A stretch of 57,895 nt of DNA, from contig CAYGFK010000005.1 of assembly GCA_964349135.1 (NCBI GenBank), positions 1 to 57,895 on the forward strand. Direction: 5' to 3'. Source of the stretch: an uncultured Candidatus Saccharibacteria bacterium. GTDB lineage: Bacteria; Patescibacteriota; Minisyncoccia; Phycocordibacterales; DSPV01. The translations under genes and the position numbers were made by a program. The first letter of the stretch is position 1. Every line of letters begins with the position of its first letter. Shown here piece after piece: positions 27,701 through 53,586 of this stretch. The notes below the pieces were generated by a model, which was not told the DNA's origin, made no database searches, and saw only the letters and a program-made list of their open reading frames with translations.

Positions 27701-29218
27701 TTACTTGATGGTGGTTGTGTATACCGAGATTCTGTCTCCTTCGGCAGGTTCAATGGAAAGCTCAAGCATGGCGCCGAATTCTTTTCCTTTACTAATTTCA
27801 TCTGCTTTCAGTTTCTGTTGCTGGAGACCTTTTATTTTTCCTCGGCCGACTTCTTCGTCTCTGCGTAAGAGTTTTAGCGAAGCTCCTGTCTTAAGCAGTC
27901 CCGCATCAACGCGCCCGCCGATGACGAATTTCCCTTTTTCCGAATTAAATACTTTCAGAATTTTTGCATTGCCCATTTCCTCTTCGACTTCAATTCGAGG
28001 ACGTCGACGTTCAGCTTCTTCTTGAAGCCATTCGGAAAGTCTATAAATGATATCGAAATTTTTAATCGTGATTTCGAGTCGTTCACTTCCTGCTTTGGCC
28101 TGCGCATCAGTTCGCACATTGAAGCCAATTATGACAGGTTCCTTTCCGACGCGTGCGGTTTTCACGTCACTTTCCGTGATAGTTCCAACTCCGGCGTGAA
28201 GTATTCTGAAAATAACATTTTCAACGGTGATTTTCTTTATTTCGTGCTGAATAGCGTCGAGTGACCCCACGGTATCAGTACGTATGATGAGCGGGATAAC
28301 GACACGCTTTTCATCTTCGGATTCTGCCTGTTGAATAGGTTTCTTTATGTGCGGTGCGGTCGGTTGATAGTCGCTAGCGGCCTTTTCAGCTTCTTTTTTG
28401 TTTGCGACTTCGCGAAATAATTCTCCGACAACAGGTACCTGATTCCACCCAACGAGACGAACCGGACTTCCGGCGCGTGCCTGTTCAATGAGGTCACCTT
28501 TGTAATTTTCAATACTTCGGATTGGTGAGAAGGCGACACCTGAGACAACGTAATGTCCTTGAGTGAGTGTGCCGTCTTTAATGACGAGCGATGCCGTTGT
28601 CCCTCGTTTCTGGTCGAGATGTGCCTCAATGACGATGCCTTCAGCGGGCTTAGAGAGGTCGCAGGTAAGGTCTTGTAGTTCCGCCATAAGTGAAAGCATT
28701 TCTAATAGTTCAGAGACCCCTTGCCCGGTTGTTGCGGAGCAGGCCACGAAAGGGATATCGCCCCCATATCCTTCAATATAGATTTCATTCTCGGCGAGGT
28801 TGGCTTTGGTCTGTTCAAGATTAGCGCTCGGTTTATCTATCTTATTGATGGCGATGATGAAGGGAATATTACTTTCTTTAATGCAGGAAAGTGCCTCAAG
28901 TGTTTGTGGTTTAACTCCGTCTTCGCCCGAGACAACGAGTACGGCGAGGTCTGCCGCACGTGCACCGCGCTCTCTGATAGTACAAAAGGCTTCGTGGCCC
29001 GGGGTGTCGAGAAAGGTGAGGGCGTGTGTCACCCCACTCTTGTCGGTTATCTGTGCTTCGTAGGCGCTGACGTGCTGGGTGATACCCCCAGCTTCTTTGT
29101 CGGTCGTGTTTTCCTTTCTGATGTAGTCGAGAAGGGTCGATTTGCCATGGTCAACATGCCCAAGTACGACAATGACGGGAGCACGGCGAGTTTTCTGTTG
29201 TTTCGTTTGGGTAGGCAT
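27701..29218 (-). CDS. infB: Translation initiation factor IF-2 (short form lacking the N-terminal extension)
   Basis: [33 protein letters not shown] and NKID. Confidence 0.97.
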
Positions 29219-29250
29219 ATGTTTGATGGAGACGTGGAAGCAGAGACATG

Positions 29251-29721
29251 TTATTTCTTCATCTCACCCGTCGCTTTGTCGAGCGCACCGCGCTCTTCTT
29301 TGGTTAGTTCGAACGGTGAATTAAATTCAGCAATAGGTTTTGCATAGACACTTACAAAGTCTCGGGAATATATCGTAGAGATAACCACTCCTTCTCCTTG
29401 CTCGTTGACGAAGGCGCTTGCAAAGCTCTGATTTCCTCCGCCACCGATTCCTTTGAATGCTTGGAACCGGACGGTGCCGACACCCTGCACTGAGCGCTTC
29501 AGACGTTTTTCGACGCCGGTCAGATAGTGTTCGACGTGTCCTCGGAACAATGTCAGCGCGCGTATCTCTTTCTCAAGCGAGCCGATACTTTCTCCGAGCG
29601 TTTCAGCTTTGCCTCCTCTCAGGAATCGGGATACTTTGCGGTCAAGGACAATAAGCCAGATTACTAAGGCGACGGTTATCGCCATGAGCACGTAAACCAC
29701 GTATTCCAAAGGAAAAACCAT
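29251..29721 (-). CDS. DUF4446-like membrane protein
   Basis: N-terminal TM, coiled coil, VRFQAF...GGNQSFASAF...GVVISTIYSR. Confidence 0.75.
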   Translation of the reverse strand: MVFPLEYVVYVLMAITVALVIWLIVLDRKVSRFLRGGKAETLGESIGSLEKEIRALTLFRGHVEHYLTGVEKRLKRSVQGVGTVRFQAFKGIGGGGNQSFASAFVNEQGEGVVISTIYSRDFVSVYAKPIAEFNSPFELTKEERGALDKATGEMKK

Positions 29722-29818
29722 AACAGGGACGATTATACAATAAAAACACTGTATTTACCACGGTATTGCTTTTTAAGAGCCGTCGAGTAATATTTTATGT
29801 ATGACAAGAGGATTTGCC

Positions 29819-29927
29819 ATGATTATTGCGATTATCATTGAGCCGCAGAGCGGTGGAGGTCTTACTTGTGTCTAAATAAAACGAACGTTTTGATACAAGC
29901 CAGCTCTCCACCGAGAGCTGGCTTTTC
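29819..29927 (+). promoter_or_regulatory. Putative Ile-responsive transcription attenuator (leader peptide MIIAIIIEPQSGGGLTCV + antiterminator + terminator)
   Basis: Leader ORF 29819-29875 has 5 Ile codons among codons 2-7. CGGTGGAG (29851-29858) is complementary to CTCCACCG (29906-29913) in the terminator AGCCAGCTCTC-cacc-GAGAGCTGGCT-TTT. Confidence 0.7.
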
Positions 29928-29977
29928 TTCCGAGAACGGAAGGTATTAGTTCTTTACCATAAGAGAAAGGATGCAGT

Positions 29978-30331
29978 ATGTATGCCGAAGTGAATTATTG
30001 GTCGGTAACGCTCTATGCGTGCAATCGAGATGAGGAACTGGCTTCCTTGAAACGTCTCCTGGTGTTATGTCGTGAGCTTTGTATCGTGGCAGGTTCGCAA
30101 TATCTCCATGACCCTTATTGGATTTCAGGTGTTGATGCGGAAGAGAGAAAAAAGGAATACCTCTCGTTTGCACCTTCGCTCTGGCTTGCACACTGTGATG
30201 AGGAAGATGCGCGAAGTCTTCTTTCGCTCATGGGTATTAGTGCCGATTCGGTATCGTTTACACCCATTGAATCTGCGGTGAATCATGAGTCAAAGACTCC
30301 TTCTTGTGTGTCATACCCCCGTCTTGAGTGA
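29978..30331 (+). CDS. Hypothetical protein, 117 aa, downstream of the Ile attenuator
   Basis: AGGA 6 nt upstream of the ATG, followed by the terminator at 30315-30342. Confidence 0.65.
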   Translation: MYAEVNYWSVTLYACNRDEELASLKRLLVLCRELCIVAGSQYLHDPYWISGVDAEERKKEYLSFAPSLWLAHCDEEDARSLLSLMGISADSVSFTPIESAVNHESKTPSCVSYPRLE

Positions 30332-30342
30332 CGGGGGTTTTT
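30315..30342 (+). terminator. Intrinsic terminator
   Basis: ACCCCCGTC-ttgagt-GACGGGGGT-TTTT. Confidence 0.8.
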
Positions 30343-30378
30343 CTTGCGCGTACGATTTGCGTGTCCTATAGTGTGCGC

Positions 30379-31557
30379 ATGGCAACACGTACCTATCTCG
30401 ATTTTGCTACTACGACCCCACTTGATGCGCGCGTTGAGCGGGCAATGAAGCCGTATTGGACGAAGTCGTTTGGTAATCCAAGCTCGCTTCATGCTGAGGG
30501 GGTCTTGGCAAAGGAATCTCTCGAATCAGCGCGTCGCGACGTGGCCAACGCCATACAAGCGCATCCGCACGAAATCATATTTACCGGAAGTGGAACCGAA
30601 GCAAACAATCTTGCAATTTTGGGATGTGTTCGTGCCCATCTTACTCGCGGTACGAAGCCGGAGGCGCTTCATGCACTCGTTTCTTCAATTGAACACTCAT
30701 CGGTGAGAGAGTGTTTTGAAGAACTCGCGCGGCTCGGGGTTCGTGTTGAGACTATTCCTGTTTCTTCACAGGGAATCGTTTCTCTCGAATCCATCGAGAA
30801 GTTGTTAAAGCCGGAAACCGTACTTATCTCGGTGATGTATGCGAATAATGAAATTGGTACGATACAACCCATTCGAAAAATAGCATCGATAGTGAGAAAG
30901 AGATATGACGGGAATACAAAACCGGCACTTCATGTCGATGCGTGCCAAGCGCCACTATACCTTTCTGTGTTACAGAGTTATCTTGGCGCCGACCTCGTCT
31001 CGTTTGATGCGCATAAGATGTATGGTCCTAAAGGTGTTGGTGCGCTTTACGTCCGAGAGGGAACGAAACTCACCCCGATTCTTTTTGGAGGCGGACAGGA
31101 GAGAGGGAGACGTCCGGGAACTGAGAATATTCCGCTTGTCATAGGATTTGCCAAAGCGCTTGAACTTGCGGTATCAGGGAGAGAAAAAGAATCAAAGCGA
31201 ATTACTCTTCTTCGAGATATGTTTTTTAATGAACTCATGAAAGTGATTCCGTCGGCAGTGGTGAACGGGGATGCGCACGAAAGACTTCCTAACAATGTCA
31301 ATATTGCAATCACAGGTCTTGATGCGGAATTTGCATGCGTGCAACTCGATACGCGAGGCATTTCATGTTCGGCAAAAAGCGCTTGTCTCGAAGGAGTAAA
31401 GGATTCGTTTGTTATTTCGGCCCTCGGGAAGGGGAATGATGCGTCCCGTTCCTCATTGCGTTTCAGTTTAGGGAGAAGCACGACCCGAAGCGATGTGAGG
31501 CGCGCGGTTCGGGCGCTCTCTGAGGTGGCACATGAACAGCTCGCCGGTCGTTTTTGA
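30379..31557 (+). CDS. iscS: Cysteine desulfurase (IscS/NifS group I)
   Basis: YLDFATTTP, FTGSGTEANN, DAHKMYGPKG (PLP Lys) and SAKSAC (catalytic Cys). Confidence 0.92.
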   Translation: MATRTYLDFATTTPLDARVERAMKPYWTKSFGNPSSLHAEGVLAKESLESARRDVANAIQAHPHEIIFTGSGTEANNLAILGCVRAHLTRGTKPEALHALVSSIEHSSVRECFEELARLGVRVETIPVSSQGIVSLESIEKLLKPETVLISVMYANNEIGTIQPIRKIASIVRKRYDGNTKPALHVDACQAPLYLSVLQSYLGADLVSFDAHKMYGPKGVGALYVREGTKLTPILFGGGQERGRRPGTENIPLVIGFAKALELAVSGREKESKRITLLRDMFFNELMKVIPSAVVNGDAHERLPNNVNIAITGLDAEFACVQLDTRGISCSAKSACLEGVKDSFVISALGKGNDASRSSLRFSLGRSTTRSDVRRAVRALSEVAHEQLAGRF

Positions 31558-52265: not shown

Positions 52266-52376
52266 ATGCATAGACAGTGGTTTAATTTTTTCTTTTTTGC
52301 AGACTCTCGTTGAGAGCCAGTTTTTGTTGTTAAATCGATTGACACCATAAACGGACTCTCAACAGAGTCCGTTTTT
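52266..52376 (+). promoter_or_regulatory. Putative Phe/Trp-responsive transcription attenuator (leader MHRQWFNFFFFADSR)
   Basis: Leader ORF 52266-52313. GTTGAGAG (52309-52316) is complementary to CTCTCAAC (52356-52363) in the terminator AAACGGACTCT-caac-AGAGTCCGTTT-TT. Upstream promoter TTGACA (52225-52230), 16 bp, TGnTAGGAT. Confidence 0.8.
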
Positions 52377-52428
52377 AGTTCTTTCACAAGGTGTATGTCT
52401 AGTCAAACCCTCAACAATAGGAGAACCT

Positions 52429-53586
52429 ATGGTAGTTACAATGGAACCAGGAGTGCCCGCAAATGGCGAATCAGTCGCGGCTGTGGTGAGAAAAGCTCAA
52501 GAATACGGTCTTAACCCGGATGTAAAGACCGAAAAAGGTAAGAAGTACGTACTGACCCAAGTATTCTTACGTGATGGCTCGAAGACGTTAAGCGCCTCTG
52601 TCCCGGAACATATTTTCCGTGGATTGCCGGACGTGAATGCGGTCGTTCGAGTGACGCCACCTCGGGTCAGTGTATTCCACCGAGGAAACGGCGACCATCA
52701 TAAGGTCGATGTCGGTGGCGGTATGATTGGCACCGGACTTCCATGTTTGCTCGTTGCCGGACCATGCACGGTCGATACAAACATAAACGCCATTGCAGAA
52801 GGTCTTGCTAAGCAAGGTATTCGTCGATTGCGTGGTGGATGTTGGAAGCCTCGTTCGTCGCCATATTCATTTCCCGGTTTTGGGGAGAAATCGGTCCAGT
52901 GGCTACTCCGTGCCGCTAAGGAACACAACATGTCATCAGTATTTACTGAGGTAATGGAGTCGTCGCATATCGATGTTATCCGTCGCATCAAGCGAAAGGT
53001 CCGATACCATGGAACCGTAGTGCTGTGGGTTGGTGCTCGGACGGCGAATCCGATTCTATTGCGTGCCCTTGGTGCGCAATTAGAATTTCCGGTTATGGTG
53101 AAGAATTCACTCGACGCACTGGGTGTGGACGACCTCTTCGAGCGTGCAGAATGGGTACTTTCGGGAAATATTACGTGGGGAGAGAATGGTGACCTTGACC
53201 CAAAACGAAGTCTCCGTTCCGCCAATCACCACGTCATTTTGTGCCTTCGTGGTACAAGACAAACCGATAGGCGAAGTCCGTGGCGGTTTAATCCGAATCA
53301 TCACTGGACGGAACTTGTCCAGAGTCAGTCGTGGGCGCCAGTTGCCATCGACCCGTCGCACAGCGCAGGCAATCGCGACTTAGTGTATCGCAACATAAAG
53401 ACGGCATTGTCGTTTAGTCCGTCACTCTTGATTGTCGAAGGGGGATATCCTGCTAAAGGATTCCCCGGTCCTTATGGACAAGGATTTTGCGACGTCTCTC
53501 AAATGGTACCCGCTGAGCATATGTGCCATGTATCCGAATTGGTGACGGCACATAATGTTGAGAAGTATCGTAAGGAAACGTTCTGA
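52429..53586 (+). CDS. aroF: DAHP synthase, type I-beta, with N-terminal ACT-like regulatory domain (divergent)
   Basis: N-terminal ferredoxin-like domain, VAGPC, RGGCWKPRSSPYSF.G, VGAR, DPSHSAG, VEG and CD (four candidate metal ligands C/H/E/D). Confidence 0.82.
   Translation: MVVTMEPGVPANGESVAAVVRKAQEYGLNPDVKTEKGKKYVLTQVFLRDGSKTLSASVPEHIFRGLPDVNAVVRVTPPRVSVFHRGNGDHHKVDVGGGMIGTGLPCLLVAGPCTVDTNINAIAEGLAKQGIRRLRGGCWKPRSSPYSFPGFGEKSVQWLLRAAKEHNMSSVFTEVMESSHIDVIRRIKRKVRYHGTVVLWVGARTANPILLRALGAQLEFPVMVKNSLDALGVDDLFERAEWVLSGNITWGENGDLDPKRSLRSANHHVILCLRGTRQTDRRSPWRFNPNHHWTELVQSQSWAPVAIDPSHSAGNRDLVYRNIKTALSFSPSLLIVEGGYPAKGFPGPYGQGFCDVSQMVPAEHMCHVSELVTAHNVEKYRKETF

Follow-up and report, generated by a model that had tools for sequence, protein, structure and literature searches.

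The enterobacterial ilvGMEDA (ilvL), ilvBN (ivbL), leu (leuL) and trpL systems are leader-peptide attenuators, in which the position of the ribosome selects the fold of the leader RNA. Like ilvL, ivbL, leuL and trpL, the element described in our study has a brief leader ORF that contains a series of codons for the sensed amino acid. It also shares with them an intrinsic terminator in which the 5' arm has an alternative partner, the end of the leader ORF, so that an antiterminator can form, and a G/C-rich ORF tail encoding Gly-rich residues. It differs from the enterobacterial leaders in several respects. First, no resemblance to the leader families of Rfam (Leu_leader, Thr_leader, Trp_leader, His_leader and others) was detected, either in sequence or by covariance model. 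Second, it lacks a conserved 1:2 hairpin, and its leader mRNA is probably leaderless or near-leaderless. Third, the Ile and Leu versions are built on one RNA scaffold, and the unit is monocistronic. Fourth, its target is a small orphan protein in an organism without the pathway. In actinobacteria, attenuators and leader peptides have also been described, including ilvB leaders and classical attenuators before trpS and leuS in Streptomyces (Seliverstov et al. 2005, PMC1262725). Those systems share with ours the occurrence of leader-peptide attenuation outside Proteobacteria and the fact that some targets are not biosynthetic enzymes; however, the phylum and the RNA sequences differ, and the actinobacterial non-biosynthetic targets are aminoacyl-tRNA synthetases with an obvious amino-acid link, whereas the protein controlled here has no known one.

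Bacteria of the CPR are regarded as amino-acid auxotrophs with little regulation, and our literature searches on attenuators or LeuA in CPR found no published leader-peptide attenuation for CPR/Patescibacteria; yet diversified and conserved attenuators appear to monitor the charging of tRNA-Ile and tRNA-Leu in pathway-less genomes of this group. The mechanism that we propose is the textbook one. The departures from the textbook are the lineage, the scaffold shared between Ile and Leu leaders, the missing pathway and the kind of target, and the Ile/Leu attenuator family of this Paceibacteria order is previously uncatalogued. Such elements offer a handle on how ultra-small symbionts respond to the shortage of one specific amino acid.

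The locus

The stretch of DNA analyzed (57,895 nucleotides, the window) is contig C5 of a 711-kb genome in 28 contigs. The attenuator sits in a 256-nt spacer between a divergent DUF4446 gene on the minus strand and a 117-aa ORF on the plus strand, which we call gene X. The genes around it are the following:

29251-29721, minus strand: DUF4446 gene, downstream of infB and rbfA
29978-30331, plus strand: gene X, encoding a 117-aa protein of the orphan family X (MYAEVNYWSVTLYA...)
30315-30338, plus strand: terminator of gene X, overlapping its stop codon
30379-31557, plus strand: NifS-like gene, the next gene after X

Since gene X ends in its own terminator, the leader and X form a monocistronic unit ahead of the NifS-like gene. 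We consider it very likely that positions 29801-29930 form a transcription attenuator of the ribosome-mediated, leader-peptide type, which senses how far tRNA-Ile is charged and controls accordingly whether RNA polymerase continues into gene X. This reading is based on the anatomy of the element, the conservation of that anatomy, compensatory changes in both helices, the identity of the run codons, which tracks the downstream enzyme, and the tie of X to Ile leaders. An earlier note on this DNA had proposed an Ile-sensing leader-peptide attenuator; all of the elements it described were found at their positions when the sequence was re-read, and the comparative tests agree with its proposal (the Ile run is present in every orthologue, related leaders precede citramalate synthase or IlvA, and the helices carry compensatory changes).

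The leader ORF and its start

Three elements make up the 5' part of the attenuator:

29766-29771 (-35, TTGCTT) and 29788-29793 (-10, TAATAT), plus strand: candidate promoter with a 16-nt spacer, read from the sequence
29801-29875, plus strand: leader ORF of 24 codons, peptide MTRGFAMIIAIIIEPQSGGGLTCV, stop codon at 29873-29875
29822-29839, plus strand: regulatory codon block ATT ATT GCG ATT ATC ATT, five Ile in six codons, ending 12 nt before strand 2

The candidate promoter at 29766-29793 scores below the threshold of our consensus scan, and its weakness by consensus counts against the Ile-attenuator reading; the homologues have near-consensus promoters 6-13 nt ahead of the leader ATG. The predicted transcription start lies at about 29800 and the ATG at 29801 comes 7 nt after the -10 element, which suggests that the leader may be translated from a leaderless or near-leaderless mRNA. 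An alternative in-frame ATG is present at 29819, behind an SD-like AGAGGA (29807-29812), and the earlier note had started the leader there. Both ATGs and the AGAGGA are indeed present, but the start at 29819 is probably wrong: relatives read ATC or GAA at that position, and the start conserved by homology is the upstream ATG at 29801. As an ORF the leader is preserved in G005, G001, G004, L064 and Taylorbacteria 43_32b, where insertions and deletions leave the frame intact.

The Ile run is present in all orthologues, where it takes forms such as IIIAII, IISKIIII and IIITAIII. The distance from the last codon of the run to the 5' strand of the antiterminator (strand 2, below) is 6-12 nt in 37 of 39 family copies (12 nt here), and the stop codon lies past the start of strand 2 in all copies, by 21-63 nt family-wide and by 21 nt here. 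Given the established size of the ribosome footprint, this spacing implies that a stalled ribosome would leave strand 2 free, while a terminating ribosome would cover it.

The terminator and the antiterminator

The 3' part of the attenuator consists of three overlapping elements:

29897-29929, plus strand: intrinsic terminator (strands 3:4), with a 12-bp stem AAGCCAGCTCTC / GAGAGCTGGCTT (29897-29924), loop CACC and then TTTTCTT
29851-29872, plus strand: strand 2, the antiterminator 5' strand, CGGTGGAGGTCTTACTTGTGTC, corresponding to the last seven codons of the leader
29892-29913, plus strand: strand 3, the antiterminator 3' strand, GATACAAGCCAGCTCTCCACCG, overlapping the 5' arm and the loop of the terminator

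The terminator alone folds with about -22.1 kcal/mol, and the antiterminator (29851-29872 with 29892-29913) is predicted to be an interrupted helix of about 22 positions with -26.9 kcal/mol. The two structures are mutually exclusive, since both need 29897-29913. The earlier note had recognized the complementarity of CGGTGGAGG (29851-29859) and CTCTCCACCG (29904-29913), which is present; the helix as folded is not limited to the 8 bp that it had given. As a whole, the region folds with a z-score of -4.85 against shuffles.

Both helices are conserved among the homologues. In an alignment of seven sequences, 96% of the terminator cells are paired and three of the pairs show compensatory changes; for the antiterminator the paired fraction is 94%, and it drops to 29-47% when the registers are slid. 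Column 74 of this alignment bears on both helices at once: a C->U change in the terminator still allows a G:U pair in the antiterminator, and a G->A change in the 3' arm of the terminator compensates for it. Among 39 distinct copies, 82% of 26 antiterminator positions pair, against 31-46% in slid registers, and when the partners were permuted among the copies pairing was 73.5% +/- 0.7% and none of 2000 permutations reached the observed value; the homologues are related, so these conserved-pair counts, like the leader/gene counts given below, are of non-independent events. At antiterminator positions 21-25, around or beyond the stop codon, the 39 copies have several kinds of pair (TA, AT, CG and GC). 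The antiterminator pairing accounts for the fact that the nucleotides of the last seven codons and of the terminator loop hardly vary.

The earlier note had also drawn a 1:2 hairpin (GCCGC-aga-GCGGT), and this part did not survive the comparison: it is conserved in no homologue, and no upstream 1:2 pause or anti-antiterminator hairpin is conserved among them. The lack of a conserved 1:2 hairpin speaks against the Ile-attenuator reading, although such a pause hairpin is not universal in the trpL/leuL/ilvL class. A pairing of the SD region (29804-29817) with strand 2, predicted by minimum free energy, was dropped as it is not conserved in the homologues. An Rfam cmscan of 29000-31000 with E-values up to 10 returned only noise, with no leader, T-box, riboswitch or sRNA family.

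Proposed mechanism

We infer the stalling kinetics of the Ile leader, its leaderless start and the regulation in vivo, and the resulting course of events would be as follows. From the promoter just upstream, a transcript would start at or near the leader AUG, and a ribosome would translate the 24-codon leader while RNA polymerase proceeds. With plentiful Ile-tRNA, the ribosome would pass strand 2 (29851-29872), reach the stop codon at 29873 and occlude strand 2, whereupon strand 3 would pair with strand 4 and the terminator at 29897-29924 would end the transcript near 29925-29930. With scarce Ile-tRNA, the ribosome would stall on the ATT/ATC block at 29822-29839, strand 2 would pair with 29892-29913 and sequester the 5' arm of the terminator, and the polymerase would read through, so that X would be made.

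A family of Ile and Leu attenuators across the order

A covariance model (R1) was built from seven copies of the element and used to search 401 genomes from 223 genera of the order. Matches were found in 66 of the 401 genomes and in 46 of the 223 genera, often two per genome, and the 70 loci that we parsed yielded two types of leader, Ile-run and Leu-run, on one RNA scaffold. The Ile leaders stand ahead of X, of full citramalate synthase (G004 and G406; TIGR00977, 668-670 bits), of genes with only the CimA C-terminal part (G001, G302 and G257; NCBIfam), or of IlvA (G057, G321 and G271; NCBIfam). Behind the Leu leaders (NLLGLLLL is an example) lies LeuA in 12 genomes; the alternative is an orphan gene that we call Y. 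Among the genes of known specificity, the Ile leaders are followed by CimA or IlvA in 8 of 8 cases and the Leu leaders by LeuA in 12 of 12, with no crossing (exact test, p about 8e-6, the cases being phylogenetically related).

Any stall within the first 13 codons would free strand 2, and in L156 the Ile run is weak and mixed with Met codons; both observations would fit a translation-coupled switch that is not specific for Ile and that answers to general ribosome availability or translation speed, to an RNA-binding protein or to a tRNA. We regard this explanation as very improbable, because runs of 5-8 identical codons are the rule, the identity of the run tracks the specificity of the enzyme in 20 of 20 cases, and no T-box or other riboswitch matches the region.

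The same comparison bears on a further explanation, according to which the leader is an independent small gene, encoding a hydrophobic micropeptide or a small RNA of about 125 nt with its own terminator, and X is transcribed from its own promoter. A conserved ORF followed by a strong terminator is what such a gene would look like, and the peptide tail GGGL(A/T)(C/R)V does look conserved within the genus. However, the peptide is freely variable apart from its Ile or Leu run. In L155 the GGGTGGAGAG stretch lies in a different reading frame, and in L156 the leader stop codon falls within it, which indicates that the constraint is on the RNA and not on the peptide tail; for this reason a micropeptide or type I toxin was rejected. 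In addition, the nucleotides of the tail pair with the terminator arm through compensatory changes, the amino acid of the run switches along with the downstream enzyme, there is no Rfam match, and a consensus scan found no promoter-like site between the terminator and the start of X. We regard an independent small gene as very improbable.

The Ile and Leu units also occur side by side. In several genera (L081, L082, L099, L101, L102 and L154), a Leu leader with Y or a small ORF adjoins an Ile leader with X or a gene for the CimA C-terminus, and the Leu and Ile units of this cassette each have their own promoter and terminator. In other genera (L108, L112, L114 and L139), the cassette consists of a Leu leader with leuA and an Ile leader with ilvA or cimA. 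The IlvA at L106 (G057) has 319 aa, matches positions 5-320 of the 418-position model and is without the C-terminal regulatory domain. Elsewhere, it is only the regulatory domain of CimA that remains.

Gene X in the place of citramalate synthase

In three sister species, the leader and the terminator have 78-82% nucleotide identity with those of the window, whereas the X protein is only 34% identical. The gene order infB-(DUF4446)-[Ile leader]-gene-nifS is shared within the genus and its middle gene varies: it encodes a complete citramalate synthase in G004 (TIGR00977, 668 bits), no more than the C-terminal LeuA_dimer part of CimA in G001 and Taylorbacteria 43_32b, and the orphan X in this genome, in G005 and in one metagenome contig. 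X occupies the cimA slot. Within one genus, the gene under control thus codes for an enzyme in some genomes, for only the regulatory domain of that enzyme in others, and for an orphan protein in still others.

The pathway itself is missing. In this genome cimA, leuA, ilvA, leuB, leuC and ilvD were not found, a genus-wide search recovered no Iso_dh or ILVD family member, and the aconitase family occurs in the genus only in one bin with 6% contamination. Without an aconitase-family (LeuC), Iso_dh (LeuB) or ILVD gene, the CimA and LeuA of G004, which each stand behind their own attenuator (L014 and L111), are orphan first committed enzymes that have no pathway to feed. The absence of the Ile pathway is one of the points against the Ile-attenuator reading, since the physiological logic must differ from that of the textbook case; another is that X has no known tie to isoleucine.

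These findings raise the question of whether the attenuator is a relic, inherited from an ancestor in which it controlled cimA and left in place when cimA was replaced by X, with no regulatory meaning at present (for example, as a constitutive partial terminator). The full citramalate synthase in the same locus of G004 (infB, Ile leader, gene, nifS), the reduction to the C-terminal domain in G001 and the loss of cimA and the Ile pathway from this genome are in line with such a history. Nevertheless, all three close relatives with X have kept the Ile codons, the two helices and the U tract without damage. Moreover, 5 of the 401 genomes, including members of three other families of the order, encode X, always preceded by an Ile leader, and four metagenome contigs with X also carry an Ile leader; this association in 9 of 9 cases points to a maintained pairing and not to a leftover. 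We therefore consider a relic very improbable and retain a working Ile attenuator as the preferred reading. The earlier note had proposed looking for Ile runs and alternative helices upstream of the relatives of the 29978-30331 gene, and both turned out to be conserved.

The target had been described in the earlier note as not being a recognizable ilv enzyme, and we arrive at the same view, since the X protein has no Pfam or NCBIfam match. A word-based homologue search found nothing beyond X itself, and an exhaustive search of 1.8 billion representative proteins gave about eight small relatives with no annotated family. The AF2 model of X (pLDDT 89.7) is a compact alpha/beta sandwich of the order beta-beta-alpha-beta-(alpha)-beta-alpha-beta. 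Its best Foldseek matches in the PDB are eIF1/aIF1 chains, although they are weak (E 0.03-0.1, TM 0.44-0.59); the SUI1/eIF1 topology is beta-beta-alpha-beta-beta-alpha-beta. A profile of X against PDB sequences and Pfam found nothing, which leaves the eIF1-like fold without sequence-level support. Two candidate origins were rejected: X shows no detectable similarity to the LeuA allosteric domain (PF08502) or to the CimA C-terminus (no Pfam match, hhalign probability of 0.2%, and hmmsearch no better than for shuffled sequences), and as a decayed remnant of cimA it finds no support in a tblastn of the G004 CimA against this genome, which gave nothing.

Our best guess is that X is a small binding or regulatory protein that would be made only under Ile shortage, in an organism unable to make Ile; the attenuator would give this uncharacterized family its first functional context, "induced by Ile shortage". 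On a larger scale, we advance only tentatively the possibility that an order unable to make branched-chain amino acids employs attenuators of its own, with Ile or Leu codons, for no other purpose than to sense tRNA charging, and that the outputs of these attenuators have been swapped at conserved loci from CimA, IlvA and LeuA to free regulatory domains and then to X and Y, as starvation-induced effectors that might bind RNA or the ribosome. If this were true, a shortage of one particular amino acid would lead X and Y to modulate translation or the relationship with the host.

The region between the terminator and gene X

Three short elements follow the attenuator terminator:

29926-29943, plus strand: second small hairpin, TCTTCCG-agaa-CGGAAGG, directly 3' of the U tract
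29947-29955, plus strand: TAGTTCTTT motif, between the terminator and the ribosome-binding site
29962-29971, plus strand: Shine-Dalgarno region of gene X, AGAGAAAGGA

Homologues have a hairpin at the position matching 29926-29943, with other stems (TCCCA/TGGGA, TTTCGG/CCGAAA and CCTC/GAGG). The TAGTTCTTT motif follows the terminators of all three attenuators of this genome (29947-29955, 52376-52384 and, about 40 nt after the terminator, the minus strand of contig C17). Genome-wide it has 8 copies against 6.7 expected, 3 of the 8 being at attenuators, and most homologous attenuators across the order have GTTCTTT at the equivalent position. The motif might pair with GAAAGGA as an anti-SD element, act as a NusG pause signal of the TTNTTT type or, being U-rich, enhance translation. 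GAAAGGA is also found ahead of the start codon in L064, G005 and the C17 copy.

Other attenuators of the genome

The earlier note had suggested that attenuation is used more widely in this lineage and that the genome be scanned for codon-run leaders followed by terminators. Such a scan gave 12 matches, compared with 2 in a reversed-sequence control, and only three of the 12 are intergenic leaders with an ATG (Ile, Phe and Leu); the genome thus holds at least three attenuators, with Phe and Leu leaders besides the Ile one. A Thr-run candidate on contig C1 was rejected, since its ORF merely lies out of frame within the last part of a coding gene.

The Leu attenuator lies on the minus strand of contig C17, at roughly 455-864, with the leader MNSMYGKQNKNLLLNLLALLLSQGGEFACACIKG and the same type of antiterminator and terminator. 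It precedes the 82-aa orphan Y (MLSSSSVAQLESLGL...), between secF and the 16S rRNA gene, and the equivalent slot in G004 holds a Leu leader with leuA. The AF2 model of Y (pLDDT 74) is alpha-beta-beta-beta-alpha and has weak dsRBD and Acb4-like matches. A derivation of Y from a LeuA/CimA regulatory domain was rejected, as hhalign and hmmsearch performed no better than with shuffled sequences. In the window itself, a Phe/Trp leader (MHRQWFNFFFFADSR) and a terminator (AACGGACTCTCAACAGAGTCCGTTTTT) were found at 52267-52384, before a DAHP_synth_1 gene (52429-53586); this is the further attenuator of the window to which the earlier note alludes.

A minor observation concerns the other side of the spacer. 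The sequence GATTATACAA at 29731-29740 (minus strand TTGTATAATC) is conserved in G005, G004, G001 and L064, and on the minus strand it reads as an extended -10 element (TGTATAAT) about 10 nt before the start codon of the DUF4446 gene, which suggests that the divergent DUF4446 transcript may be near-leaderless as well.
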